Source: Calditrichaceae bacterium (GTDB lineage: Bacteria > Calditrichota > Calditrichia > Calditrichales > JBFXGD01). From it: a DNA stretch of 64,000 nt. The translations under genes were made by a program, and so were the position numbers. Shown here piece by piece: positions 42,573 to 60,260 of this stretch; position 1 is the stretch's first letter, and each line of letters begins with the position of its first letter. The notes below the pieces were generated by a model. That model worked only from the letters and a program-made list of their open reading frames with translations, did not search any database and was not told the origin of the DNA. Location of the stretch: assembly GCA_050173015.1 (NCBI GenBank), contig JBFXLE010000012.1:32001-96000 (forward strand), written 5' to 3'.

Positions 42573-43616
42573 TTAGATTGAACGGATATATTCCATAAAT
42601 TGTTTAAAAAATTGCTGATCAAGCTCTTTTTTCAGGGTAGTCATCATTTTTTCATAGGCCTGATCTTTGGAAATACCCATGGTACGATTCGCATAGTTGA
42701 ATGTTTTTAGAGTGAACTGATTAATATTGTCTTTAACATCCAACTCCAGCCGCCAGTTGTTGCCGCTTACATCGTTCCTTCCCAAATTGGCCGGAGAAAA
42801 AATAAAACGGTAAATAATATCAAAATCAGCGGCTTGATTCTCAACGATTTTAAATCCGATTTTTCCGACAATCTCCTTAATATAAGGGGCGGCTTTCTCG
42901 CTCTGCGCGCCATCCGGATTTAAACGGACAGTAATCGTTGAGAGCAGTTTTACTTTTTCGTTCACTATTTGGCTTACGGGAACGGGAGACAAGATGGTTT
43001 CACCGGTCACGGAGATAATTTTGAATTGTGATAATAAGAGCTCATTCACATCCATAAGATCCGATGCTCTCATCAGATACGCGAATTTGACAAGTTTATT
43101 TTCATTTGCGGTGTATTGGGAATAGTAATCGTTTACCAGTTCATAATTTTCTTCTATTTCCTGCTGATATAATTCTTCCGTATCCAGCCGGTTCAGGTAA
43201 GCCAGAACGTAATAAAGACCTTCAGCGGATGAAAAATAGGATTTATCAATCGTAATGTTCTTGAGCGCCTGGTTGCTTTTAACATTTGTTTTGTTAATGA
43301 TCTCCGCGGTTGCGGTAACCCCCTGTTTGTTTTCATAATAATTTTGGAGTACTGTTTCGTCTACAAAAACATTTGATTGGAAAACTTTGGAGATACTTCC
43401 GATGGCGTTATTTTCTGCATTAGCGCGCGTGTCGCCGCTTCCGATTCCCACGATATATCTCGATGCGGGATATGAATTATAAGGATGATCAATCCAGTCG
43501 GGAATCATGTCATCGGTAGTAATGTTTTTATGCGCTTTCGGCGCCGCGCAGGAAGATAATATTATAAAACCGCAAAGTATGGTCAGTATCCACAAGAGTT
43601 TGAAACTATGCATCAT
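42573..43616 (-). CDS. LPP20-family lipoprotein
   Basis: Lipobox LSSC; IPDWI, YIVGIGSG, AENNA. Confidence 0.7.
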   Translation of the reverse strand: MMHSFKLLWILTILCGFIILSSCAAPKAHKNITTDDMIPDWIDHPYNSYPASRYIVGIGSGDTRANAENNAIGSISKVFQSNVFVDETVLQNYYENKQGVTATAEIINKTNVKSNQALKNITIDKSYFSSAEGLYYVLAYLNRLDTEELYQQEIEENYELVNDYYSQYTANENKLVKFAYLMRASDLMDVNELLLSQFKIISVTGETILSPVPVSQIVNEKVKLLSTITVRLNPDGAQSEKAAPYIKEIVGKIGFKIVENQAADFDIIYRFIFSPANLGRNDVSGNNWRLELDVKDNINQFTLKTFNYANRTMGISKDQAYEKMMTTLKKELDQQFFKQFMEYIRSI

Positions 43617-45125: not shown

Positions 45126-45761
45126 TTACCATTTGTAACGGTTTTGTTCGATCATCTTTTTGATTTTTTTATCGCCTATCCACACTTTCAGATTCTTCTC
45201 CAGGTGAATAAGTTCCAGATTAACCTGATAATAAACGGCTTTCTGACCTTCGAAAGAATCAACAATGGTATTTATACTGCCCTGAAGCATGTAGTCGGCG
45301 CCGGTTTCATTGGCAAGTTGTTTTGCCGTTTCCAGAGATGAAAAACTTTGCTGATCGAGTCGTTCTTTCCGAATTTCTTCACGTTCTTTTTCGGATGCGA
45401 CAAAACTGATCTGTCCGGAATTGATTAATTCTTTTTCAATGTCTTTTATGAATAAATCCACCGGAATATGTTCGCTGCTTTTGTTACGAATACTTCCAAC
45501 AATAACAACGGGTTTTTCATCATTCAGATCCACATATTCGAGTAACCATGGTTTTGAAAGAAGATCACGGATCATGGCTTCCGCGGTAAGCCGGGAATCA
45601 GTATCATTCCAACGTCCGCTCAGATCCGAAGTTTGATCCGCGGAAACACGGGTAACTTTTCGTGAACTCTGGCATTGAATTAGAACCGATGATAATAAAA
45701 CTAACATGCCTAAAACCAGCATTCTTGATAAAAAACTTCCTGTCTTTAACATAACGGCCAC
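45126..45761 (-). CDS. LpoB-like (CsgG/LpoB fold) lipoprotein
   Basis: DLSGRWNDTD, IRNKSSEHI, GADYMLQGSI, YYQVNLEL..VW..IKK. Confidence 0.8.
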   Translation of the reverse strand: MAVMLKTGSFLSRMLVLGMLVLLSSVLIQCQSSRKVTRVSADQTSDLSGRWNDTDSRLTAEAMIRDLLSKPWLLEYVDLNDEKPVVIVGSIRNKSSEHIPVDLFIKDIEKELINSGQISFVASEKEREEIRKERLDQQSFSSLETAKQLANETGADYMLQGSINTIVDSFEGQKAVYYQVNLELIHLEKNLKVWIGDKKIKKMIEQNRYKW

Positions 45762-45880: not shown

Positions 45881-47695
45881 CTATTTATAGATCTTAAAAT
45901 TAGCGGTTTTTATTAAAGAATCCTCATCCCATTCGTTGGGCTGCCAGGCCCTCACATAGATAAGAGGATCCTTTTCGGTGAAATCAATCAATAGAAACAG
46001 ATATCCTTCATCAGAGTAGGTGGTTGAATAATAACTCTGACGCATTTCCACTCCATAAACCCCCTCGGTACTGTTCTTCTTTATAATGTCAAATGATCCG
46101 AAGTCAAGAAATATATCTTTTTGAAGGTTAAATACTTGTTCCTGTCTTTTAAGATAATGCTTTTTTGTCAGACGTACATATTCGTAATCAGGCTGATTAG
46201 TAAATTTCTGATAATTAACCATATTATCAGGCAATTTCACCGGAGTAATTTTACGACCAACAAGGATAAGCGCTTCATCAGCGAACATCAAATCCACCGT
46301 TTCAATATCACGGGTCTGGTAAGCCGTACGATACTTTTCAACAAACTTAATAATATCCTGTCTGTTTTCCCAATCATTGCCGTATTTTGCCTGTTCGGAG
46401 AAATGCCGGTAAAGATTTTCTGAAATACTAAGATTAAAGTCGATTAAAATTCCTTTATCTGAAAAATCAAGCACTAAATATTCTGTTGATTGTTTGTTAA
46501 TACCAGGGTAATGATGAAGCATACGTATTTTACGTAATTCATATCCGGAAGAGGTTTTGAAGATCCCGCCTTCAATATTATGCGTGGCGGGTTCCGCGGA
46601 ATTGTATCTCAGATAATTGATGATCTTGTGGTTTAGAAAAGGATCATTAGAATATTTTTCATTAATCATCGACTTATCATTTTTTGAAAGAAGATCTAAA
46701 AATTCAGAAGCGGACTTCAAGATTGTCGGTTCGACAAGAATATCTTTTTCCAGGGTAAGATTCATATTCCATTTATTGGATGCGCCGGAAGTTTGGACTT
46801 GCCCAGACTTGACTTTCTGATTGAGATCGACGTTTTTTGCGGAATTAAATGTGGGCAGGTTTACCACATTCCATAGTTCACCGACCACATTATATTCCTG
46901 ACGGGATTCATAATAGGCGTATTTTATGAATAATTTTAAGGATTCAAAGTTGGTGCTGGCTCCAAGCAGTCGAAATGTCGCGATTCCGTCTCTTCCTTCA
47001 ACTGCAACCTGGCTAGTTCCGTCCCAAAAAGTGAAATCAATAAGAGATACGGCAATTCCGTTCGAAGTAATATGAAGTGTTATTTCACGCTCCATGTCAG
47101 AGATTTTTTTGTCACCGGCAAAAGTAAATTTTAAATCAAGAAGAATCCGGTTAATACGCGCGGGCAGTTCTGTCGTATAATTAATATCCTGATATACAAC
47201 GCTTTCATCAGGTAATGACTGGACAAGCAAGAGAGCATAGTAATTCAGCTTTAACGCGAATGCAGTATTATGATTTAATGCATTTAATTCGGCTTTACGC
47301 GCGATTTCAGAAATCAGTTTTTTGCGCTCTTCAAAAATCTGAAAAACTTCCTTCTTGTCAAGGTAACAAAACGTTTCTATCTCACCGTTGGCCAGGGGCT
47401 TTTTTATCGTGTTTACGTTTTGAAGTGTCGCGGCGCTGTGAGTACGTATGATGGATTTGACAGACTCATCGAGTCCGGCCGCGTTTTCAATAATTTTGCT
47501 TTCAAAAGATTTTGCTACCCTAACGGCGATTTGCTCGGTCAGTTCTTCCAACGCGCGGTCACGGGATTCTCTGGTGTCATGGGCCACTCCGGAACCGTAA
47601 TAGTAATTTCCACTATTAATAACTTGTTTTTTATCAATTTGCTGAGCAAATAGTAAAGGTGTAATCAAAAAGATACTGAAGAAAATGATCCGCAC
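45881..47695 (-). CDS. Exported protein with N-terminal LPP20-like domain
   Basis: Signal peptide; YYYGSG...RALEELTEQI; C-terminal YRTAY and DEGYLFLLIDF..P.IYVRAWQP region. Confidence 0.6.
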   Translation of the reverse strand: MRIIFFSIFLITPLLFAQQIDKKQVINSGNYYYGSGVAHDTRESRDRALEELTEQIAVRVAKSFESKIIENAAGLDESVKSIIRTHSAATLQNVNTIKKPLANGEIETFCYLDKKEVFQIFEERKKLISEIARKAELNALNHNTAFALKLNYYALLLVQSLPDESVVYQDINYTTELPARINRILLDLKFTFAGDKKISDMEREITLHITSNGIAVSLIDFTFWDGTSQVAVEGRDGIATFRLLGASTNFESLKLFIKYAYYESRQEYNVVGELWNVVNLPTFNSAKNVDLNQKVKSGQVQTSGASNKWNMNLTLEKDILVEPTILKSASEFLDLLSKNDKSMINEKYSNDPFLNHKIINYLRYNSAEPATHNIEGGIFKTSSGYELRKIRMLHHYPGINKQSTEYLVLDFSDKGILIDFNLSISENLYRHFSEQAKYGNDWENRQDIIKFVEKYRTAYQTRDIETVDLMFADEALILVGRKITPVKLPDNMVNYQKFTNQPDYEYVRLTKKHYLKRQEQVFNLQKDIFLDFGSFDIIKKNSTEGVYGVEMRQSYYSTTYSDEGYLFLLIDFTEKDPLIYVRAWQPNEWDEDSLIKTANFKIYK

Positions 47696-48027: not shown

Positions 48028-49842
48028 TTACTTGTTCGTTACTTTTTTAGACGGCCCGCCGCCAAACAAAACACCAAATTGAAGATACGCGCTTTCCTTT
48101 ATGTCATGATCATCACGATATTGCTGATACACAGCTTTCAGGAAAAAATTATAACCTAACTGGATTCTGAGATCCGCGTAATAACCATAGGTTGTTTGTT
48201 TGATCTTATCCACCCGGTCACCATCCAGTTCATTGTAAAAATAGTTTTCTCCGATAAACGCGCCGGCAGACGGATAGAGTGTTTCCCACAATACAAATGG
48301 AGTAAATCCAAGATAACCGTTCCAGCTATAGGTAACCAGACTATCTTTTTCGACAGAGGATGTGTTCAAATTTGTTGTTTTAAATCTAAAACTGCCGCCT
48401 ATCGTAAACGGATTCAAATAAACAGAAATATCCCCGATGTAGCCGTAGTCATCAAGCGGATCAGATATTTCATCGGATTGTGTGATTTCATTCAGCATCT
48501 CAGGGGGCAATTGCCAGTAATATCCGCCGAAAGAAATGAGTAATCCGTCCGAAACATCGGAAATCCGTTCATTACCAAAGGCGGTCAGACGGAAGAAACG
48601 ATTTCTTGTTTTAACAAGTTTATAATCACATTCTTTGCCTCGTGAATCAATGGAAAAGGATTTGTTTTTTGTATCATAGCCTTCTTTTTCTATACGGATT
48701 GAAAATTTTCCGGGTTCCAGTTCCAGCTCATATATGGGAATGGCGCCCATGTAACGGTTATCAATATAAATACCGGCTCCTTCTGTTCCCTTTACTGTGA
48801 GCAGTCCATTTGGTGATGGCGAGACCTGCAGATTCAGATCGTAGTCCCCGGTAACGTCAATATTAAGTGAATCGGGACGATGACGCCGCTTACGGGCTTC
48901 AAGTTGATACCGTCCGGCCGGGACTTTTCGTTTAAGAGGTGTCGAGCCGATGTAATTGTTATCCAGATAAATTTCGGATTCAGGGACATTGCTTTCAATA
49001 ATTAAAGTACTCTCTTTACGGAGAAGATTTACCTGAATAGGTACCGATTTCTCGGGATCATCATTCGGTATTATTTCCATGGCATAAGTAAAAGGATGAT
49101 AGTAAGGTTTTTCCAGACGCAGAAAAGCCAGGCCTTCGGGAACCGCGATAGGCAAATCAGGACTGAATGGCGCTTCTTTATCATTGATGTATAAGCGCGC
49201 GTCATTTTGTAGAATAGAAATGGTGACATAGCCAAATGTTGGTGTGAGCGTCACTTCTTCGTTTACGGTTTTACCCTCCTGTATTTTTATAAATATTTCA
49301 CGACGGACATAGCCTTCTTTGGTGATGATAAATTTCCATGTCTGCGCGCTCAGATTTTCAAAACGGTGGGGACTGATCTGGTTAAGGCCGGGCATTCCGT
49401 CAATTTGTATAGTGGCGCCGGCGGGTTGGGTCTTTAAAATTAGATGCCCTTTGCGCGAATTATACTTTGAATCAGCGGAAATCTTTATCACAAATACCGC
49501 GCGGGGTGCTAACTGAATACCAGCTTCCGAAAAAATGATTTGCATTGGCTGAAAACCGGTGTGTAATATTTCCAGCACACGCTCATCCGGGGACAAATAT
49601 ATGATATCGCGTCCCGGTTGATCATCCACTTTAACTACGCCGTTATACGCGTCATAACTGAATCCATCCATGTCGGATATGATCCGGATAGCGGCGCAGA
49701 ACCGGCCGTTCTCGTCTTTGATTCCAGTCATTTCATCAGAAGACTTTTCAGCTTTGCCTACTATTTGAAGTTGAGAGAGATTTTGAGCCTGAAGAAACGC
49801 AGATACCAGTAAAATAGCCAGTAACATCCTTGTCATGAGCAT
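48028..49842 (-). CDS. PEGA-domain exported protein, possible C-terminal beta-barrel
   Basis: Repeated PxGAxIxIDG / IGSTPL / KEGY PEGA motifs; aromatic alternating C-terminal strands. Confidence 0.75.
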   Translation of the reverse strand: MLMTRMLLAILLVSAFLQAQNLSQLQIVGKAEKSSDEMTGIKDENGRFCAAIRIISDMDGFSYDAYNGVVKVDDQPGRDIIYLSPDERVLEILHTGFQPMQIIFSEAGIQLAPRAVFVIKISADSKYNSRKGHLILKTQPAGATIQIDGMPGLNQISPHRFENLSAQTWKFIITKEGYVRREIFIKIQEGKTVNEEVTLTPTFGYVTISILQNDARLYINDKEAPFSPDLPIAVPEGLAFLRLEKPYYHPFTYAMEIIPNDDPEKSVPIQVNLLRKESTLIIESNVPESEIYLDNNYIGSTPLKRKVPAGRYQLEARKRRHRPDSLNIDVTGDYDLNLQVSPSPNGLLTVKGTEGAGIYIDNRYMGAIPIYELELEPGKFSIRIEKEGYDTKNKSFSIDSRGKECDYKLVKTRNRFFRLTAFGNERISDVSDGLLISFGGYYWQLPPEMLNEITQSDEISDPLDDYGYIGDISVYLNPFTIGGSFRFKTTNLNTSSVEKDSLVTYSWNGYLGFTPFVLWETLYPSAGAFIGENYFYNELDGDRVDKIKQTTYGYYADLRIQLGYNFFLKAVYQQYRDDHDIKESAYLQFGVLFGGGPSKKVTNK

Positions 49843-50824: not shown

Positions 50825-50954
50825 CTTACTTCCTACTTCTTACTTAAGGCTAAGGCACTAATTTCCTGTTCTTACTCTTTTTTCTTTTTTCTTTTATCTT
50901 TTGTCTTAATTTCCTACTTCCTACTTCCTACTTCTTAATTCTTACTTCCTACTT
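50825..50954 (-). repeat. Heptamer tandem-repeat composite element (AAGTAGG/AAGTAAG units plus A-rich heptamers)
   Basis: 6 units at 50913-50954 and 3 units at 50825-50845, flanking AAAAAAG-type heptamers. Confidence 0.8.
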
Positions 50955-52245
50955 CTCCTCCGTACTGCTTTGTCTCATGGCATCCCGAATAGCACATTTT
51001 TCCATCTTCGGTTTCCCCAATACGCGCCGGCATTTTCCATTTTCCAAATGACACTTTTCCGGCAATCAGATGCTCCTGATTTGATCCGTGCATATCGTGA
51101 CAAAGCACACAGTTGCGGCCTTTATCTCGCTTGACATGCAGATAATGGAGATTTTGTTTTCCATCGCTGAATCCAGACGCGTCCATTCCCGGGTCTTCAA
51201 TAAGTGAGGTTTCATGACAGTTGAAACAAACCGCGAAGGATTCTGAATCGCCCGGAGCGTATGCGCTATTGGGAAAGTCAGCGTTTAGCAGGCAGGTAAA
51301 TTCGGAAGAATGGGGAAGATGGCAGGATTCACATCCACCATCCATAGCCGGGGCATGGATAAATTCTTTTTCTTCCAAACGATTTTTGATTTTTCCCGCT
51401 CTTGAATACTCAACCGGCAGGGAGGTGTCATGACATGTAAGACAAAGCTCCTCTCTCTGCTGAGTCAGTAATCCATTCATCTCCGATGCGTGAGCTTTAT
51501 GACAGTCAAGACAGGCTCGTCCATCGTTTATCGCTTTATGCACTGAAATGTTATCGGATTGGTCTTCATGGCATTCATAGCACTGTCCGGGAACCGGCAT
51601 CTTCAGAAGTGACGTGTATTGAGATGTGTGAGTGTGATGACAATCCGAACATTCCCCCTCATAAGCGGGATGCACATTATTCAATGCCAGCTCATCTTTC
51701 TGCTCCTCATGACAGTCGAAACAAAGCTGCGGTGGCTCCTTTTTCAGAAAAGCTGCATAATCTGATTGATGCGGATTATGACACTCTGTGCATTGGTTGT
51801 TTTCCGCCGGCGGATGATTTACCGCCTTTGGATTATTATATAGATCATGGCATTTACCGCAAATCTCCCCCTGGTCGGCGGCGATCAGTAGTGCCGCGTT
51901 GTTGGAACTGTGGACATCATGACAGGCGGTGCATTCACCTGCGACAACCGGAGCATGAACATCATCTTTTTCATGTTTTGAATCATGACAATCATAACAG
52001 AGATAGGGCATTTCGTTTAACAGCGAAAATTCATTACCCTCTGAGCCGGGATGAATAAATCCGTTTGATTCATGACAGGAAGCGCAGTCATCTTCAACGG
52101 GCGGATGAATATGCGATCGGTCCAGATATGACCCGTGACATCCTCCCGCGGTGCAGTCTGATTCCAGTTCTGCCTCTTGAGCAAAAAGAGGAGACTGATG
52201 AAAGAATAGTATCACGGCGAAATAAAATATGATCCGAATGGTCAT
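50935..52245 (-). CDS. Exported multiheme cytochrome c (13 CxxCH plus one CX4CH and one CX3CH)
   Basis: Motifs counted in the translation; paired CxxCHxPH / LCxxCH pattern; signal peptide from ATG 52245 (AAGGA RBS). Confidence 0.93.
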   Translation of the reverse strand: MTIRIIFYFAVILFFHQSPLFAQEAELESDCTAGGCHGSYLDRSHIHPPVEDDCASCHESNGFIHPGSEGNEFSLLNEMPYLCYDCHDSKHEKDDVHAPVVAGECTACHDVHSSNNAALLIAADQGEICGKCHDLYNNPKAVNHPPAENNQCTECHNPHQSDYAAFLKKEPPQLCFDCHEEQKDELALNNVHPAYEGECSDCHHTHTSQYTSLLKMPVPGQCYECHEDQSDNISVHKAINDGRACLDCHKAHASEMNGLLTQQREELCLTCHDTSLPVEYSRAGKIKNRLEEKEFIHAPAMDGGCESCHLPHSSEFTCLLNADFPNSAYAPGDSESFAVCFNCHETSLIEDPGMDASGFSDGKQNLHYLHVKRDKGRNCVLCHDMHGSNQEHLIAGKVSFGKWKMPARIGETEDGKMCYSGCHETKQYGGEVGSKN

Positions 52246-52255
52246 GAGTTCATCC

Positions 52256-54223
52256 TTAGAATTTTCTTTCAACACGCATGAATCCGGCATTGTATGTTAT
52301 CTCTTCCCCGGAAAAATCGCGCCGGTAAGTTTCTAGTCCCACAGTCAAATACATCTGTCTGAATCGTGTTGTAAATTCACCCCGCAGCGTGGCAAGATTC
52401 AGATCAATGCCTCTTCCATCCTGAAAACGGTAGCTTGTTTCCAGACTGATTTGCGAGATACGGGAAAGACGATACAAAAACCGGCCGGTTAAATCCCTGA
52501 ATTTCTGGTCTTCCTCGTCTTCTGTCAATGTATAATTCCGGATATTTCCTGAGAGAGAAACATTTAGCCTGCTAAACAAATATCTGTTAAAAGTGATATA
52601 ATACCGGACTGAATGATAGGGAACGATATTGCTGTTGTAGTCGTCAATTTCTACCCCGCCGGAAATCGGTCCTTTTGTCAATCGTGTGCCAAATACTCTC
52701 TCGGAAACCGTTTTGAGTACGGCTAAATCAGATCCTTCCGGATTCTCAATATCCTGTTCATATGAACGAAAATATAACTCAGCAAGCTGATTAAAAACGG
52801 TTAATCTCGCTCCGAATGCATTACTGAGTATATCGTATTGGTATGAGGTCTGCCGTGTTACCGTGTAATCTACGAGAATTTTTGTCCCATCGGGGATTTG
52901 GCCACCAGGCAGTCGCTGAATTTCCAGGAAATCGCCTCGTGTAATCAGTACATAATCCAGATTCTCCTGATAAGGAATCAACCCTGTTTCATCGGTTACC
53001 ACAACACTTGCCGGATCCGCGTAAGGATTTTCCAGCAATATTGTTTGCCCGTCAAACAGAGTAACGGCCTCATTGATAATTCTTGACGGGCTTGGCAGGC
53101 TGTTCCGGTTTTCATTTCGCTTCCTGAGCTCGTAGTCGATGGAAAGGTTGCCGGTCGGGATTTTTTTTATATAGTTGAACCCGATTGTGCCCGTGTTGGT
53201 GTACTGATTAAATCCGCTCTGATTAAGATCGATATATTCATAATAGGCAAAACTTCTAAGGCTCCGGTATAACTGATGCTCAACTCTACCGGAAATATTA
53301 TGCTGGTCGGAGCTGAATTCCTTTTGATCAAAAGAAGCATATCGGTAATCACCAGAAAAATCCAGATTATACGGTAATACGAATCTGATATTCTCAGTGG
53401 CGGTTAACCGGTCAAACTCCTCGCTTCCGGTCTGCTTATAATACCAGATCAGAGAATTGAGATTATTATTGCGGTTCTTATCCAGGAAGAAATTATCCCG
53501 CAGATTGACGCTCGATATTTTATTGTGAATGGATGCGTTTTGCGCGTATTCACGTGAATAATCTTCATATGAATAAGCAAAACGATGGTCATCATAGCGG
53601 CTGAATGATTTGCTGAATTCGGATCTAAAATTATCACGAGTATTTACAAAATCACGCCCGGTTTGCAATTCCTTTTGTTCCCAGTTTTCATGAGAATAGC
53701 TAAATGTTACCGGGAGAATGTCGTTGCGATAGGCAGCTCCTCCGCCAATATCTGTTCTGTAGTTCTCGACATTGGTCAGGAATTCGCGGTTCACATAACT
53801 GTGGCTAAAATTCGTAAACAAGTTAAATGTAAAAGGGCGCTGTTTAAAAAATGATGTATGGAGATTTAATTTTTCACCTGTTTTTGTTTCAGTGCGGTTT
53901 GGAACAACCAAAAACTGATCCCGCCGGATGCCGGGATTGAAGTCAAAATCGGCATTTATCAACATAAAATTGGGGTGCCAGACATAACTTCTTGATCTTA
54001 ATAAAATCTCTCCGGAAAAAATCGTGGATTCAGGCTTATCAGATAAACCGGATGGATAAACTGTTTCCTGCGAACGGAATTCACTTTCCATAATGACGGA
54101 ACCGTTCAGCGATTGCAGGCGCCATGCCCCAATCGAATAAAGTTCACTGTCCTGTCCGGAAGAAGGAGACAGCAACATCAAAAGAAGAGCAGGGATTAAA
54201 CCAATTATTTTCCGTAACGTCAT
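52256..54223 (-). CDS. Large outer-membrane beta-barrel (porin of a porin-cytochrome conduit)
   Basis: Signal peptide, alternating aromatic beta-strands, C-terminal Phe (VERKF), lies between multiheme genes. Confidence 0.78.
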   Translation of the reverse strand: MTLRKIIGLIPALLLMLLSPSSGQDSELYSIGAWRLQSLNGSVIMESEFRSQETVYPSGLSDKPESTIFSGEILLRSRSYVWHPNFMLINADFDFNPGIRRDQFLVVPNRTETKTGEKLNLHTSFFKQRPFTFNLFTNFSHSYVNREFLTNVENYRTDIGGGAAYRNDILPVTFSYSHENWEQKELQTGRDFVNTRDNFRSEFSKSFSRYDDHRFAYSYEDYSREYAQNASIHNKISSVNLRDNFFLDKNRNNNLNSLIWYYKQTGSEEFDRLTATENIRFVLPYNLDFSGDYRYASFDQKEFSSDQHNISGRVEHQLYRSLRSFAYYEYIDLNQSGFNQYTNTGTIGFNYIKKIPTGNLSIDYELRKRNENRNSLPSPSRIINEAVTLFDGQTILLENPYADPASVVVTDETGLIPYQENLDYVLITRGDFLEIQRLPGGQIPDGTKILVDYTVTRQTSYQYDILSNAFGARLTVFNQLAELYFRSYEQDIENPEGSDLAVLKTVSERVFGTRLTKGPISGGVEIDDYNSNIVPYHSVRYYITFNRYLFSRLNVSLSGNIRNYTLTEDEEDQKFRDLTGRFLYRLSRISQISLETSYRFQDGRGIDLNLATLRGEFTTRFRQMYLTVGLETYRRDFSGEEITYNAGFMRVERKF

Positions 54224-54260
54224 TTTTTTACCTTAAAAATGATAAAACCAATCGGTGGAA

Positions 54261-54869
54261 TTACCTGAATAAATAAGCATCTTCACCGCCGTGCGGATTA
54301 TGACAATCCAGACAGCTAACTTCGTTTATATCCTGGTGAGCTTCATTTTTAAAAACGTCCCCGCTCTGATGACAGAAAAGACATAACTCCTGTCCGTTCC
54401 GAATCAAAAGATGTTCATTTTTTGACAGGTGTGGATTATGACATTCCGTACAAAATCCGGCCCCCACCGGTCCATGCAGCGCCTCGTAATTATCGTTAAA
54501 GTCATCATGACACTGATAGCAAAGGCCCGGTTGCTCATCGAGCAGGGCATTTCCCTTTTCAGGGACATGGCAGGCATCACATGATTTTTCGGCATAAACA
54601 GGGTGCACGGTCATTTTCGGGCGAACGGGATTTGCAGAAGCAGGTGTACCTGCAACAGGGACAGATGCCAGGACCGTATCAACTGTCGCCGATTGTTCCG
54701 CTTCGGGGCCCGGCACTCCGTCAAAAAAGGTAGTAAGAACTTTATGACGGCTTTCCGGATGACAGGCAGCCAAAAGCGCGATGACCGTCAATATAAAGAG
54801 GTGTGTAATATGAGTTCGCAAGGCTATTCTCTGAAATTTGGTTTTTGAACAATTTTTCAGATAACACAT
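54261..54869 (-). CDS. Pentaheme cytochrome c lipoprotein
   Basis: Lipobox LAAC; CDACH, CYQCH, CTECH, CLFCH, CLDCH; start uncertain. Confidence 0.9.
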   Translation of the reverse strand: MCYLKNCSKTKFQRIALRTHITHLFILTVIALLAACHPESRHKVLTTFFDGVPGPEAEQSATVDTVLASVPVAGTPASANPVRPKMTVHPVYAEKSCDACHVPEKGNALLDEQPGLCYQCHDDFNDNYEALHGPVGAGFCTECHNPHLSKNEHLLIRNGQELCLFCHQSGDVFKNEAHQDINEVSCLDCHNPHGGEDAYLFR

Positions 54870-54895
54870 TGTTCGCGTTTATATGCCGTTAAATA

Positions 54896-55969
54896 TCATT
54901 CCTTTACATCAACAAATCCATAGACGTTGATCTTATCAGGTCCATACTGATTGGTTACAAAAATCAGATATTGCAATTCGAAACCGGGATGAACATATTT
55001 CCGGAAATACTCAAGATTGTCATAATCTATAATCACTTTGGCGGGCAGCCACATATCACCGGGTCCTTTATAGCTTCCTCCGAAAAACATCAGTAATTGA
55101 TCTTCTTCATTAAATAGCTGGACATTTTCAAAGCCCGCGTCCACCACGTATAAATTGGATTGTTTATCTACCGATATTCCCTTAGGGCGTACAAATTGCC
55201 CGGCATTTTTTCCGTAGCTGCCTATGGATCGAATGAATTCGCCTTCGGTCGTATAAACTTTTACGCGGAAATCACCAAAATCACTCACATAAACCTGATC
55301 ATTTTTTACGAATAGATTTGTCGGGGAGTACAGGTTGCTTTCCCCGGTATTCTCATCATTGGGGATCGATCGAATCAGTTTATGGTCTTCTTTTGAAAAC
55401 GCCAGAATCTTATGGCCTTTGATATCGCTGACCCAGATTAAATTATTAGTGACAAAAACATCAGTCGGCCTCAGGATGTCCTCGCTGCCAAAACTGTTCA
55501 CAAACTTCCCGCTTTCATCAAATATAACGATATCGCCTCTTTCAGAATCAGCCACATAAACGCGTCCGTCAACATCCACAAAAGAGTTGATCGGTTTCTT
55601 TAACTGGCCCTTTCCGGCCGGTTTCAAATATTCAAAAGAACGGGTATTCAGATCGATAATTTCGAGTCCGCCAAACATGGTGTCGCAGACATATATTCTG
55701 CCGCGGTATATAGACAGTCCATACGGTTTGACGATGGACCGGTTTTCTTCTTCGCCCAGCACATAGCGGGCAAACGCGGAACGACGTCCGGTGATATCGC
55801 TTGAACTGCTGATACGGGTTAAAAACTGGATTCTCGTAGTAGCCGGAGGCGCGGGATAGATGATGACGTTATCGTCGTTCACAGGCCTGTTGAAGGTCCT
55901 GTTGCAAGAAAGCGCCATCATCACTATAAAAAAAGACAGAACAATTAACTGAATTAAATTCTTCATCAA
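54896..55969 (-). CDS. NHL-repeat six-bladed beta-propeller lipoprotein
   Basis: Lipobox ALSC; repeated KPYG / RPTD / RPKGISVD..YVVD motifs. Confidence 0.88.
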   Translation of the reverse strand: MMKNLIQLIVLSFFIVMMALSCNRTFNRPVNDDNVIIYPAPPATTRIQFLTRISSSSDITGRRSAFARYVLGEEENRSIVKPYGLSIYRGRIYVCDTMFGGLEIIDLNTRSFEYLKPAGKGQLKKPINSFVDVDGRVYVADSERGDIVIFDESGKFVNSFGSEDILRPTDVFVTNNLIWVSDIKGHKILAFSKEDHKLIRSIPNDENTGESNLYSPTNLFVKNDQVYVSDFGDFRVKVYTTEGEFIRSIGSYGKNAGQFVRPKGISVDKQSNLYVVDAGFENVQLFNEEDQLLMFFGGSYKGPGDMWLPAKVIIDYDNLEYFRKYVHPGFELQYLIFVTNQYGPDKINVYGFVDVKE

Positions 55970-56054
55970 ATTTTATCCGTATTCAATAAATTAGACTCAA
56001 AACCGGTAATAATTACAATTCAAATAAACCGCGGCGAATAATGTCTTCAACCGT

Positions 56055-56678
56055 TTATTTATTATGACAGGTCAGACACAAGGCGCTCGACGAATTGGAT
56101 ATGATGAGCAACTTGCTGAATCCCTGGCTGTTATGTACATCATGACAGGAGGCGCACTGCACTTTACCGCCGATTAACATGTCATTGCTAATGGTGCCGC
56201 CCATGCCTGAATTCGCGGTGGTCGGATCGTATAATCCGCCGTCTGAGTTTGCCAGCGCCGCGTCATAAGTAAAAGAAACCGGGTGATCATCACTAAGATC
56301 TGTTCCCACAAGGCTGTTTCCGGTAATAAAATGGCTTCCGCCTGTTTGGCCGCCGTAATTGTCAACGGCTATGGTGCCGTCATGACAGCTCATACAGAGT
56401 TTTGATGAAGCATCCGGTTGGCCCACAGTGGCGTTCATGGACGCGCTGCTGTAAGGAGTAAATGTGGCGGAGGTCATCTCATGATTCCATAACGGGGCAT
56501 CGCTGACGGATACATCGGCATTGTGAGTAGTATGGCAGACGATGCAAATCTGGTCGCTGGTATTCCAGGCCGCGGATGAAAAATCGTGGGCGGATCCGAC
56601 AATGGACTGCGCCAACGCGGTGCCGCTGAGCACCAGGGTAAAAGTTACAGCAAAGCAAAAACCTAATAATCGTTTCAT
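56055..56678 (-). CDS. Secreted tetraheme cytochrome c, OmcE-like
   Basis: Signal peptide; CIVCH, CMSCH, CASCH, CLTCH with HDFS, PLWN, CHDG and GTDLSDDHPV motifs recalled from Geobacter OmcE. Confidence 0.85.
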   Translation of the reverse strand: MKRLLGFCFAVTFTLVLSGTALAQSIVGSAHDFSSAAWNTSDQICIVCHTTHNADVSVSDAPLWNHEMTSATFTPYSSASMNATVGQPDASSKLCMSCHDGTIAVDNYGGQTGGSHFITGNSLVGTDLSDDHPVSFTYDAALANSDGGLYDPTTANSGMGGTISNDMLIGGKVQCASCHDVHNSQGFSKLLIISNSSSALCLTCHNK

Positions 56679-56728
56679 GACTGTTCCTTTCAATTGTTTT
56701 ATTGCCCTAAAATGTGAAAATCTTCCTG

Positions 56729-58417
56729 CTAATAAGTTTTTGGATCATGATCTTCTCCGTGACATACTAAATAACATGACCCTCTGGAGGATCCCTGATC
56801 AATAAACTCCAGTCTTGTACCGGAGGGGAATACAACGGAAACATCAAAATTAATAAGATGTGTGTTATTGGTCGCATTTCCCTGTAAACTGCTTATTCCA
56901 TGCGGATCGTGACATACGTTGCAGGGGGTATCTTCAGCAACGATATGCCTCCAGTGTACTTTTCTCGCAAAACTGCCGCTGCTGTTGATGATTGTATTTC
57001 GGTTGTGGCATTCATAGCATAAGCGGTAATTGTCATAAGATTCGGTTGTATAATCCGCGGTAACATACTGATATTTTAATATCTGCGGGTATATGGATCC
57101 GTGAGGTCCCGCCGGCGCGCCCGTTCCGTCGCTGGCATGACAATGGGTGCAGTAAATTATGCTTGATGCTGTGTAAGGTGATATCATCGACAAGACATTT
57201 GGATTTTTGCCGACTGCCTCAATCGGGTGGTATGAAGGGTTAGCCGGATCATATTCAAGACGCGTGTTGGATTGTTCAATCAATCTGATAGTCGGGCTGC
57301 CGGGTTTATCGGGACTGTCGGCATGGCATTTATAACACAACTCATACTGGTATTGTACCGTTTCGACCGCTGTTCCGTTTGTATTCAATCCGCTTGTGCC
57401 GGCAATGAATCCATTGGCGTTTGGCGCGGTGGCTGCTGAGAGTTTGCTGGAGTGTGGATTATGACAATCTTCGCACTCAACATGTCTGTTCTGGACAGGA
57501 ATATTTTCTTCCGGATCATGGACACCGGCATAATTGTAAACATCATGAATATACGGTTTGGTTGTGATAATTGTCTGAATGTTTTTAGCGGCGACATTTC
57601 CGTTATGGCAGTCCAGACAGTTATTCTCTTCCGTGAGTGAATTCAGCAGACGATCATGACTCTCTGAGTTATGAGGATTATGACAGTTTTCACAGCCGTT
57701 TTCCGCCACATTCGCGTAGGGGGTGTGAAACCAGGGATCATTTCCGGAGCCGTTCCACGTCGCGATTGAATTTTTATGCGATGAATTGACCCAGTCATTT
57801 TTCTGATGGCAATAGAGACAAAGATCAGAGTTTTGGTTGGTGGCGACCAGAAACTGTCCGTATAAATCGACATGCGGATCATGGCAGGAAGTGCATTGAA
57901 CACGCTCGTTTGCAAGTTTAACCGGCCCGGTAAGAACGGCTGGATCGCTTAGTTCACCATCAGCCGCCGATAAAGCGGAATTATATAAAAAGGACACCGG
58001 GTGATCATCCGATAAATCGGTGGATAAATTTTTATTACCGGATGGCATCATCGTAATTCCGCCACTGAATTCTATGGGTGCCGGTTTGCTTAAAACATTA
58101 CCGAGAGCGATGGTGCCGTCATGACAGGAAAGGCATAATAGTGAAGCGCCGTCCGGCTGCCCTGGGGAGGCCTGTGTGGTAGAACTGCCGTAAATTGTGT
58201 AGGTTAATCCCGGATCTTCACGATTCCATAATGGTTTTCTCGGGCTGCTCTTATGCGGAGTGTGACAAAAAACGCAGATTTCAGATTCGCTGCTGGCCTT
58301 AACTGTTCCCGGGCCGGTGACGGATAAATTATGAACTGAATTCACAATTGATTGTGAAAGCGCGATAGATGGAATCATTAATAAAAAGGTCCAGGTTTTC
58401 AGTAGCTTATTTTTCAT
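56729..58417 (-). CDS. Secreted multiheme cytochrome c (11 CxxCH plus one CX3CH) with N-terminal OmcE-like module
   Basis: Motifs counted; first about 200 aa are colinear with the adjacent tetraheme (ICVFCHTPH, PLWNR, CLSCHDGTIA, TDLSDDHPVSF). Confidence 0.9.
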   Translation of the reverse strand: MKNKLLKTWTFLLMIPSIALSQSIVNSVHNLSVTGPGTVKASSESEICVFCHTPHKSSPRKPLWNREDPGLTYTIYGSSTTQASPGQPDGASLLCLSCHDGTIALGNVLSKPAPIEFSGGITMMPSGNKNLSTDLSDDHPVSFLYNSALSAADGELSDPAVLTGPVKLANERVQCTSCHDPHVDLYGQFLVATNQNSDLCLYCHQKNDWVNSSHKNSIATWNGSGNDPWFHTPYANVAENGCENCHNPHNSESHDRLLNSLTEENNCLDCHNGNVAAKNIQTIITTKPYIHDVYNYAGVHDPEENIPVQNRHVECEDCHNPHSSKLSAATAPNANGFIAGTSGLNTNGTAVETVQYQYELCYKCHADSPDKPGSPTIRLIEQSNTRLEYDPANPSYHPIEAVGKNPNVLSMISPYTASSIIYCTHCHASDGTGAPAGPHGSIYPQILKYQYVTADYTTESYDNYRLCYECHNRNTIINSSGSFARKVHWRHIVAEDTPCNVCHDPHGISSLQGNATNNTHLINFDVSVVFPSGTRLEFIDQGSSRGSCYLVCHGEDHDPKTY

Positions 58418-59423
58418 CGGCATCCTTGTATATCAGTTCAAACATCTGTATGCGCGCGTTATAGCTGTCGGCTATGTAGATACGATCCTGGTGATCGATA
58501 TATATTCCCGACGGAAGCCAGAATTCACCCCGGCCCCGGCCCTGTTTACCAAAATAATGAAGAAAGTTTCCTTCTTTATCAAAAATCTGGACGGTATGGA
58601 AAAGCCCGTCCACCACGTAAATTTGTCCATGTGAGTCAGCAGCGATTCCTTTCGGGGCTGAAAAATAGCCGCTGGCGTCGCCGGCTTCACCAAAAATATT
58701 CACAAGTTCACCTGATTTATTAAAGACCTGAATCCGAAAATTCATTGAGTCAACCACATAGACATTACCCTTATCATCGATGGTGAGATAAGTGGGAAAA
58801 TTAAATTCAGCGGGCCCGGTTCCGCGTTGTCCAATTATTCTCAGTAGTTTGCCGGACTTATCCAATACAAGGATACGGTGTTTCCCGGTTTCCGTTACCC
58901 ATATTTCATTTGAAACATTTGAAAAACCGATTCCCGTCGGTCTGTCAATTTCTAATGAGGGATTTAATAGACCGGTTTTTCCCATTGTAACATTTTGGAC
59001 ATATATTTGATTGGTTTTTGAATCTGTAAGAAGCAGTGAATTTGAATCAAACCCGGACATACCGATAAGTGACGGAAAGCCGGTTTGTTTTTCCTGATAA
59101 AAGTTTTTGACCTGACCGGAATTTTGATCAATAAATGTCAGGGATTTAGCGCCCTGATCGAGTACCCAGATGGAATCAGGATCATCCGCGAAAACTGCCA
59201 CCGGTCTTATTAACGAGTGGAAATCTTTTCCGAAAATAAAATTAAACATTAACTTCGTAAAACCGGGCTTACTTTTCAAATCATCAGAAGATGCAAACTG
59301 TCCGGTCCATTTAACAGCGTGGGAATCGCTTCCGGAAACTACAGACTGATTTTCAACTGCCAGGCTCAGCATTGGAAATATGATCAGAATGGTGAATGAT
59401 ACTAACAGGAAATTCCGTTTCAT
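58407..59423 (-). CDS. NHL-repeat beta-propeller protein (exported)
   Basis: FNFPTYL..D..GNVYVVDS.NFRIQVF type repeats; signal peptide. Confidence 0.9.
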   Translation of the reverse strand: MKRNFLLVSFTILIIFPMLSLAVENQSVVSGSDSHAVKWTGQFASSDDLKSKPGFTKLMFNFIFGKDFHSLIRPVAVFADDPDSIWVLDQGAKSLTFIDQNSGQVKNFYQEKQTGFPSLIGMSGFDSNSLLLTDSKTNQIYVQNVTMGKTGLLNPSLEIDRPTGIGFSNVSNEIWVTETGKHRILVLDKSGKLLRIIGQRGTGPAEFNFPTYLTIDDKGNVYVVDSMNFRIQVFNKSGELVNIFGEAGDASGYFSAPKGIAADSHGQIYVVDGLFHTVQIFDKEGNFLHYFGKQGRGRGEFWLPSGIYIDHQDRIYIADSYNARIQMFELIYKDADEK

Positions 59424-59834
59424 CAGGACAAAATCCTTTTAAGTACGTTCATGGGTGCCATGTGAAAAAATATACTTATTTAGACCGATTATCAATTTAA
59501 TCGTAAAAAAGTTAATTCCTAATGTAAGATAATGGTTAAATTCAGCCCTTGTATGTGCTCTAAATCAATTTCAGATTGTATATAAAAGTATGACACTTAT
59601 TCAGTGACATGGAAGATATAAAAAAAAATGGCGGTTGAAAATGATTTTTTAAAAAACCTATGCAGGACAGTAATGTCAATGAAGTAATTATAACCCGCGC
59701 GGAGAATTGACCGGACAAAAACAATATTCACAAAAAAATTATTTGTTTCGGAAACTATCCTGTCAATTCCCCGGCGTCAGGTTAATGAGATGATTTGGCG
59801 GATATGTCTGATCCGGCATGCCCGGGGAATGAAA

Positions 59835-60260
59835 TTATTTCATCACCGCTTTTTTAAGCGCGCTGAGATTCTCACGTTCCCGGGCCGCTCTTCCCGCAAA
59901 GCTTTCGAGCGCCGTGACTTTCCATTTTAACACGCCCCACGCAGGGATACCGCGTATTATTTTATCCACTTCGCTGTTGGAGGACGCTTCCACGATAAAG
60001 ATTAATGCCCGGTCCCCGACCGCAAGGCCGCCGGCGATGATCTTCTTTTCGGCCTCAAGCGTCATTAATGCGTTAAAAGTCGGCAGTATCCCTTTTTCCA
60101 GGACTTGTATACCCTCTTCCGGAGATGTGTAACCGGGGCCATCGGATCCGACCACCAGGTAAAAATTACTACCGGAACCCGGCATTTTAGGCTGAGCCAA
60201 TGCGGACACGCTGAATCCAAATACAGCGATTGTAAATATCACCATGATTTGCTTCTTCAT
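59835..60260 (-). CDS. Exported protein, muconolactone-isomerase/dimeric alpha-beta barrel-like
   Basis: Signal peptide; IFIVEASSNSEVDKII..IPAW...WKVTAL pattern. Confidence 0.55.
   Translation of the reverse strand: MKKQIMVIFTIAVFGFSVSALAQPKMPGSGSNFYLVVGSDGPGYTSPEEGIQVLEKGILPTFNALMTLEAEKKIIAGGLAVGDRALIFIVEASSNSEVDKIIRGIPAWGVLKWKVTALESFAGRAARERENLSALKKAVMK

Follow-up and report, generated by a model that had tools for sequence, protein, structure and literature searches.

We describe here a run of seven co-oriented open reading frames (ORFs), g1 to g7 in order of transcription, which occupies positions 50935-59423 on the minus strand of a 64,000-nucleotide stretch of DNA from a Calditrichaceae bacterium (the window; contig JBFXLE010000012.1, positions 32,001 to 96,000), and which we read, on balance, as a variant of the gene clusters that encode OmcE-type cytochrome nanowires. 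All seven genes lie on the minus strand and begin with two pairs. The first consists of g1 (58407-59423), a protein of 338 amino acids without cysteine that is a six-bladed secreted NHL beta-propeller, and g2 (56729-58423), a cytochrome of 564 residues with 11 CxxCH motifs and one CYLVCH. The N-terminal part of g2 (residues 1-209; 57797-58423) combines a signal peptide with an OmcE-like tetrahaem domain, and its C-terminal part (residues 210-564; 56729-57796) holds eight more haem sites, seven CxxCH and the CYLVCH. The second pair consists of g3 (56055-56693; 212 residues, four CxxCH), a tetrahaem cytochrome of the OmcE family and a candidate secreted or polymerising subunit, and g4 (54896-55969; 357 residues), an NHL beta-propeller lipoprotein. 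There follow g5 (54261-54869; 202 residues, five CxxCH), an accessory pentahaem lipoprotein cytochrome; g6 (52256-54223; 655 residues, no cysteine), an outer-membrane beta-barrel of about 30 strands belonging to an unnamed family; and g7 (50935-52290; 451 residues), an accessory MtrA/DmsE-like cytochrome with 15 haem sites (13 CxxCH, CYSGCH and CTAGGCH).

The genes are tightly packed, with spacings from g1 to g7 of -17, 35, 85, 26, 37 and -35 nt. Together the cytochromes carry 33 CxxCH motifs (11, 4, 5 and 13 in g2, g3, g5 and g7) and the three atypical ones, and these are not chance occurrences, because the matches of the cytochromes to the Pfam family Paired_CXXCH_1 (E = 7.8e-30 for g2, 2.3e-11 for g3, 4.5e-23 for g5 and 9.1e-64 for g7), like those of the propellers to NHL, are strong. 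An original prediction, made from the letters of the window and a list of its ORFs, had given this gene content and this haem count, and the ORFs, counts and Pfam matches agree with it. Its further statement, that all seven proteins appear to carry export signals, also holds on a simple reading of hydropathy and lipobox-like motifs: 7/7 proteins have an N-terminal hydrophobic segment (best 12-residue Kyte-Doolittle window 1.9-3.0), and lipobox-like motifs are present in g4 (..MALSC) and g5 (..LLAAC). As annotated, g3 and g7 probably start too far upstream, by 5 and 15 codons respectively; database entries for g3 have 207 residues, with a shorter start at 56678, and g7 probably begins at M16 (52245).

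The principal observation concerns g3. Over its full length it aligns with chain 7tfs_A, which we take to be OmcE of Geobacter sulfurreducens (E = 8.7e-28; residues 14-212 of g3 against 9-232 of the chain), and with 9yuq_N (2e-23). The data availability section of PMC13712944 gives 9YUQ as a model of the OmcE bundle of Desulfuromonas soudanensis. The OmcE family is recognised by four CxxCH motifs within some 200 residues, a pattern that g3 shows and that is invariant in 72/72 members of its clade. Four further histidines, H36, H57, H137 and H187, are kept in the same 72/72 sequences and align with histidines in 7tfs_A, 9yuq_N and 7/7 Geobacter-type OmcE proteins; section 7 of PMC13712944 names four extra conserved histidines that ligate the haems as an OmcE trait. 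Among the related loci L006-L083 there are also 40 further small OmcE-like paralogues without a following NHL gene, none of them in the window, of which 23 have four CxxCH motifs, 12 have five, three have three and two have seven; the five-haem forms may equal the 'possible new OmcE nanowire family' mentioned in section 9 of PMC13712944.

A second OmcE-like domain forms the N-terminal part of g2. Residues 10-208 match 7tfs_A at E = 1.6e-31, a profile built from 43 homologues of this part matches 7tfs_A at 3.3e-46 and 9yuq_N at 1.5e-37, and identity to g3 is 41%; its four CxxCH motifs and H31, H57, H141 and H184 are invariant in 43/43 sequences. The C-terminal part matches the Pfam family Mtrc-MtrF_II-IV_dom over residues 238-369 (E = 3.2e-13), has weak profile matches to 6i5b_A (3e-5) and 6r2q_A (2e-4), and contains nine invariant histidines outside the haem motifs. 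In the alignment of the whole protein, which comprises g2 of the window and 42 of 49 ORFs of at least 500 residues (left out were two divergent forms and five homologues whose N termini carry long, spurious extensions), all 12 haem motifs and 13 further histidines are invariant in 43/43 sequences, giving 25 histidines, or 2x12+1. The kinship with OmcE to which the original prediction had pointed is therefore seen twice in the operon, both g3 and the N-terminal domain of g2 being homologous to solved OmcE filament subunits. A phylogeny of OmcE-like domains (IQ-TREE; 73 of 132 rows, with every second g3-type and g2-type row, and with the bootstrap not fully settled) places these domains in three well-supported clades: g3-type sequences (99/91, 37 rows), Geobacter-type OmcE (100/96, 7 rows), and the N-terminal domains of g2 together with split forms (99/90). 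Being unrooted, the tree does not say which of these clades are sisters. Another architecture, seen at L122:8662-10866 (minus strand) and in similar form in G063, G283, G225, G334, G133 and G310, is a protein of 734-784 residues, preceded by an NHL propeller, whose first 350 or so residues align with residues 16-350 or so of g2, a stretch that corresponds to the OmcE-like domain and the next haems.

The structural features of the operon have a close analogue in a recently described system. According to section 8 of PMC13712944 (mBio 2026), even the smallest omcE clusters always comprise OmcE and a large beta-barrel along with two multihaem cytochromes and two beta-propeller lipoproteins. By this definition g3-g4-g5-g6-g7 with g1 constitute an omcE cluster, to which g2 is additional, and because the composition matches, the kind of electron-export system represented here is already known, while the variant is undescribed. 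A reference Geobacter-like locus, whose OmcE matches 7tfs_A at 7.1e-119, has the order 9-haem cytochrome, 8-haem cytochrome, NHL propeller, OmcE, 746-residue barrel and 343-residue protein. Both clusters thus have a tetrahaem subunit with all eight ligand histidines, NHL partners, a very large adjacent barrel and MtrA-like cytochromes. They differ, however, in that g3 shares only 36% identity with OmcE of the Geobacter-like genome, falls into a clade of its own and carries a ninth conserved histidine; in that the g6 family has no detectable homology to the Geobacter-type barrel; in that the operon of the window includes the 12-haem fusion g2 with its own propeller; and in that the carrier phyla differ from the five that appear as sources of OmcE homologues in the available text of PMC13712944 (Thermodesulfobacteriota, Pseudomonadota, Aquificota, Campylobacterota and Nitrospirota). 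In 4/4 Geobacter-like genomes the equivalent of g1-g2 stands at a separate locus and is split into an NHL protein, a 4-haem OmcE-like protein and a 7-CxxCH protein, the last corresponding to residues 279-564 or so of g2. This split locus may be omcP/omcO. PMC11492766 does no more than group 'OmcE/OmcP'.

Other systems resemble the operon in part. In Desulfovibrio ferrophilus, the clusters DFE_0448-0451 and DFE_0461-0465 likewise combine multihaem cytochromes with NHL beta-propeller lipoproteins, a likeness that we draw from their description, and the extracellular fraction contained one small cytochrome, DFE_0465 (PMC5815863, PMC8322314); in contrast to the operon here, no barrel is reported in the accessible parts of PMC5815863, whose authors propose that the propellers replace it. 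There is also an analogy with chaperone-usher pili (FimD/PapC), already drawn for OmcE in section 12 of PMC13712944, in the large barrel, in a subunit that donates an element to its neighbour and in a variant subunit that ends the fibre. However, there is no sequence relation to these pili and no periplasmic Ig-like chaperone, g6 has more strands, and the fold match to the ushers is tied with those to other large barrels. The 'osc' assembly of OmcS, in which a porin-like channel with beta-propeller-like and other proteins is reportedly used to mount the nanowire on the outer membrane (Shen et al. 2025, Cell Chem Biol), is alike in idea and again likened by description, but OmcS belongs to another cytochrome family.

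Related loci were gathered by a scan of genome contigs, and what follows refers to the best 78 of at least 641 matching stretches. Their taxon labels are those of metagenome-assembled genomes as deposited, read from record titles, and the list is biased to relatives of the query. The labels are Bacteroidota-type in 27 loci, Gamma/Betaproteobacteria-type in 15, Ignavibacteriota/Chlorobiota-type in nine, Calditrichota in eight and Desulfobacterota-type in five; the remainder are Gemmatimonadota (three), unclassified (three), Omnitrophota (two), Verrucomicrobia (two), and Sumerlaeota, 'Deferribacteres', Bdellovibrio and Hyphomicrobiales with a single locus each. The original prediction had called for a search for the same synteny, and where loci have full 10-kb flanks the core of g1, g2, g3, g4 and g6 is present in 34/36 and all seven genes in 18/36. 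The five-gene core therefore travels together across phyla. Within the phylum of the window, among 86 genomes, strong matches to g6 occur in 29 and to g2 in 30, with both in 28; in the sole genome with g6 alone the reading frame has in-frame stops, and one of the two with g2 alone is 64% complete. Clusters of the window type are intact in other Desulfobacterota (L132, L135, L137-L139), and a 2753-residue ORF with 57 CxxCH motifs lies directly downstream of an OmcE-like gene in another member of that group (L116:10479-18740, plus strand). At the level of single families, g3 has 5130 database clusters at E<=0.001, and g6 has 3054, 2372 and 1632 clusters at 50% identity (E<=1e-3, 1e-10 and 1e-30). 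The suggestion that a cluster of this type sets the lineage apart is not sustained: it is widespread across phyla, and clusters of its kind were reported in 2026 from five others, as listed in the available portion of PMC13712944.

Each NHL propeller gene sits beside one OmcE-like gene, g1 beside g2 and g4 beside g3, and across the 78 loci g1 is directly followed by g2 50 times and g3 by g4 70 times. The propellers match Pfam NHL (E = 1.3e-25 for g1, 1.5e-13 for g4) and DUF5128 (5.8e-20 and 8.6e-15). A lipobox-like motif is found in 49/71 homologues of g4 and 13/58 homologues of g1. Among structures in the PDB, the best matches of g4 are the NHL domains of TRIM3/TRIM71/TRIM2 (E about 1e-27), with Brat also among the best, such that g4 resembles scaffold-type NHL domains and not enzymes.

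The barrel g6 is the least familiar component of the operon. Searches of Pfam and NCBIfam returned no family or porin family, and its neighbours in the ESM Atlas are all annotated 'hypothetical protein'. An AlphaFold2 model made from 29 sequences (g6 of the window with 28 of 37 hits) has a predicted local distance difference test (pLDDT) score of 90.4 and a predicted template modelling (pTM) score of 0.69, and contains 30 strands, with a mean length of 15 residues, connections of 2-9 residues and a C-terminal Phe; the description of the 655-residue protein as a barrel in the original prediction is in keeping with this confidently modelled barrel of about 30 strands. The lone long insert, 57 residues after strand 18 (residues 390-446, minus strand 52886-53056; between strands 18 and 19 by DSSP of the model), is a small conserved domain that falls in the best conserved block of the family consensus. 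Given the usual N-in topology and a correct strand count, it would lie on the periplasmic side. Residues 385-462 or so (52886-53110) match a phage tail tube model of NCBIfam below threshold, with 28.7 bits and E = 8.3e-7 against a cut-off of 60. Simple geometry gives a backbone radius of 26-30 Å for 30 strands, by which estimate the barrel would in principle be wide enough for a folded small cytochrome. Fold searches (Foldseek, VIA-align) returned generic large barrels, Cir, PirA, LptD, BtuB, MtrB and FimD/PapC being tied, and no specific structural relative; the MtrB chain 6r2q_B has a query-normalised TM-score (TMq) of 0.35 and a Z of 15.3, level with unrelated large barrels, and FimD and PapC have Z of 14.2 and 14.1. 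Two observations concern distant forms. PF27730 is a precomputed assignment on one distant relative of g6, and g6-like barrels of about 660 residues with 24-27% identity are found in four genomes of the window's phylum (G406:C36:23632-25014, G417:C131:8767-10041, G432:C117:3179-4453 and G408:C25:895-2274), in three of which (G406, G417 and G432) an OmcE-like gene stands on the same contig, possibly indicating a further variant of the barrel.

Our essential contention is that this is an OmcE-family extracellular cytochrome locus and a second version, 'type B', of the omcE nanowire cluster, a reading to which we give slightly better than an even chance. We propose a model in which all seven proteins would be exported by Sec and the cytochromes matured by Ccm. 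The barrel g6 would serve as an outer-membrane pore or anchor through which folded g3 passes to the surface, in line with the suggestion in PMC13712944 that the omcE barrel may be a secretion pore or anchor. At the surface g3 would stack into a haem wire or form a short surface assembly, with g4 and g1 acting as non-enzymatic escorts or adaptors for g3 and g2 respectively. Through its OmcE-like domain g2 would join the g3 assembly and add eight haems, as a cap or a base. Where present, g7 and g5 would feed in electrons from periplasmic carriers, and the quinol dehydrogenase would be encoded elsewhere. In this model the secretion route, polymerisation, capping, the occupancy of the barrel and the physiology are what we infer, and the sequence does not dictate which way electrons flow.

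Several observations weigh against this reading. No g3-type protein has so far been observed as a filament, and the polymerisation of g3 into an extracellular haem filament is predicted from its kinship with OmcE; yet g3 stands outside the clade of proven filament formers in the unrooted tree. A ninth conserved histidine, H71, is present in 70/72 g3-type sequences where 7/7 Geobacter-type OmcE proteins have Arg, and since a count of 2n+1 histidines is, according to section 12 of PMC13712944, ideal for an anchor, g3 might by the same logic itself be non-polymerising, although this histidine arithmetic is ambiguous. The barrels are not demonstrably of one family: a hidden Markov model of the g6 family (57 sequences) has no match at E<=10 in Geobacter-like loci, and hhalign of the g6 profile (57 rows) with the Geobacter-type barrel (7 rows) gives a probability of 27.8% over 111 columns. 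The AlphaFold2 model of g2 (43 sequences) has a pLDDT of 59.5 and is too poor to use. Many carrier labels denote taxa not known for extracellular electron transfer, and 'DFE variants' are treated as weak evidence of that process in surveys, to judge from the available text of bioRxiv 2022.03.26.485925.

Among alternative explanations, the one that survives best, although we think it unlikely, is a classical porin-cytochrome conduit without a filament, in which g7 would thread g6 with g5 at its mouth, and in which g2 and g3 would be monomeric or 1:1 surface reductases seated on the NHL propellers, as MtrC is on MtrAB. Here g5-g6-g7 are contiguous and tightly spaced, and like MtrCAB and the Geobacter Pcc/Ext systems they set a barrel, an MtrA-like periplasmic cytochrome and a lipoprotein cytochrome side by side. 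The chain 6r2q_A (333 residues, from an Mtr complex entry), which we take to be MtrA, is matched by g5 at E = 1.9e-12 and by g7, over a short stretch, at 2.7e-12, such that the porin-conduit-like cytochromes of the original prediction are indeed MtrA-like. In addition, g7 matches TIGR03508 at E = 3.1e-40 with 138.3 bits, below the cut-off of 192.2 for the DmsE family, and its resemblance to the MtrA/DmsE family is real even though the curated cut-off is not reached. The MtrC/MtrF-type domain in the C-terminal part of g2, the presence of MtrB among the fold matches of g6, and the ninth histidine of g3, which could close the open haem of that protein, are all consistent with such a conduit. Set against this, g5 and g7 are optional across the cluster family; they occur in 26/36 and 21/36 fully flanked loci, compared with 35/36 for each of g6, g4, g2 and g1, and in loci labelled Proteobacteria and Gemmatimonadota g3-g4-g6 are directly adjacent without g5. 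Unlike MtrB, g6 has some 30 strands and minimal loops; it has no sequence link and no specific fold link to MtrB, which is tied with TonB-dependent receptors and ushers, and by the geometric estimate it is wider than an MtrA-like rod needs. Moreover, Mtr systems are without the OmcE-like proteins and NHL propellers found here.

It is less probable still that the same hardware works inward, taking electrons from Fe(II), reduced minerals, cathodes or partner cells, or serves in the reduction of soluble humics, rather than in Fe(III) oxide respiration. Carriers labelled Thiobacillaceae, Sulfuritalea, Woeseiaceae, Gemmatimonadota and aerobic Bacteroidota families would suit such a role, and the NHL-cytochrome clusters of D. 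ferrophilus have been linked to electron uptake from solids (PMC5815863, in the part available). However, nothing in the sequence fixes the direction, and the 28 ORFs with at least three CxxCH motifs in the genome of the window are typical of respiratory versatility. Most improbable is a redox module of the periplasm or outer membrane that has nothing to do with extracellular electron transfer, such as one for detoxification or a soluble-substrate reductase with catalytic NHL propellers, for while NHL/SGL-type propellers include enzymes and weak Pfam matches to SGL and Arylesterase exist, the best NHL matches are the scaffold-type TRIM and Brat domains, g3 has full-length homology to an extracellular OmcE, and the core genes include one for a dedicated giant barrel that is strictly inherited along with the rest.

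Returning to the type B nanowire cluster, the part that g2 might play deserves separate comment. Section 12 of PMC13712944 states that OmcE operons encode no OmcE-like candidate for a tip or anchor, and the secretion, anchoring, starting and ending of nanowires are open questions in the portion of that paper available. The histidine count of g2 fits a subunit that donates H31 to its neighbour while closing all its own haems, which is a lead and not evidence; as proof of a cap the count alone was rejected, because g3 shows 2n+1 too. On a terminator reading, H31 of g2 would go to the open haem of the last g3 and an extra invariant histidine would close the open haem of g2 itself. The closing residue may be H216, just past the OmcE-like domain, which is invariant in the 43 fused g2 proteins and not in four split C-terminal proteins (A/N/E/R), and the wire would then sit in a head made up of eight haems. 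From its conserved sequence, g2 is a concrete candidate for a nanowire cap or anchor located inside the operon. A bolder proposition, that type B, with carriers in the FCB group, Gemmatimonadota, Proteobacteria and elsewhere, is the most widespread bacterial nanowire machinery, with g2 as terminator, anchor or tip encoded in the operon and g6 as an usher for folded haem proteins, we regard as doubtful in its entirety.

The genome that carries the operon (4.34 Mb, 97.5% complete) contains no paralogues of g2, g3 or g6 elsewhere. A check for cytochrome c maturation, called for at the outset, found ccmC, ccmE and a ccmF-like gene together on contig C24, in keeping with System I; PF01578 has four matches above cut-off, including ORFs of 753, 764 and 237 residues, and PF03100 (CcmE) lies at C24:53049-53303 between two of them. 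The operon had been called complete, and this is where the original prediction went too far, since no inner-membrane quinol dehydrogenase is encoded in the operon and NapC/NirT-like matches occur only on other contigs, which means that the operon is not a complete pathway. The guess that the DNA came from Calditrichota was a good one: the label Calditrichaceae bacterium is attached to a protein with at least 90% identity to g6. Sequencing runs with this DNA comprise 12 DNA datasets in five studies, one of them possibly the source, with no RNA dataset listed. The same genome has two other large multihaem clusters, at C15:33678-42349 (ORFs with 3, 19, 11, 12 and 9 CxxCH) and at C18:84416-87573 (ORFs with 19 and 20).

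In the window, the operon is flanked by a gene for a ClC channel upstream and an SRPBCC gene downstream. A promoter-like site upstream of g1 (TTGACA-17-AATAAT; 59738-59766, minus strand) matches at 11/12 positions and is weak, because promoter-like sites in the region total 25 against a shuffle mean of 23.9, which is not above shuffles. Between the ClC channel gene and this promoter region lies a secreted-looking ORF of 141 residues (59835-60260, minus strand); its match, muconolactone-isomerase-like and weak, stays under the cut-off (9.6e-5). Just downstream of the operon, within a run of genes for envelope lipoproteins (LpoB-like, 45126-45761; LPP20-like, 42573-43616), are two neighbouring ORFs of 604 residues each (45881-47695 and 48028-49842, minus strand), of which one has PEGA domains (4.1e-32) and the other is without a family.

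None of the papers available to us joins OmcE with Calditrich*. The available portion of PMC6344600, which does combine OmcE with Ignavibacteri*, mentions neither the cluster nor NHL propellers, and those of PMC11475568, the Caldithrix genome paper (PMC5317091) and the Melioribacter paper (PMC5492636) contain nothing on the cluster. Carriers of homologues that are named in sources include Caldithrix abyssi and Ignavibacterium album.

The structures of cytochrome nanowires are known from very few organisms, and the locus described here shows an OmcE-like system, equipped with an unnamed barrel family of its own, to be common and to occur in phyla without a described nanowire. If our reading of g2 is true, this protein fills the role of cap or anchor for which OmcE operons offer no candidate in the text of PMC13712944 available. 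Should cultured strains of Caldithrix abyssi and Ignavibacterium album carry the cluster, it may become accessible to bench tests. Its recognition would also turn many genes now annotated as "hypothetical protein + cytochrome c3 family" into a recognisable marker of electron exchange for environmental genomics. The value of the finding lies in its breadth across phyla and in a testable candidate, encoded within the operon itself, for the termination or anchoring of a nanowire.

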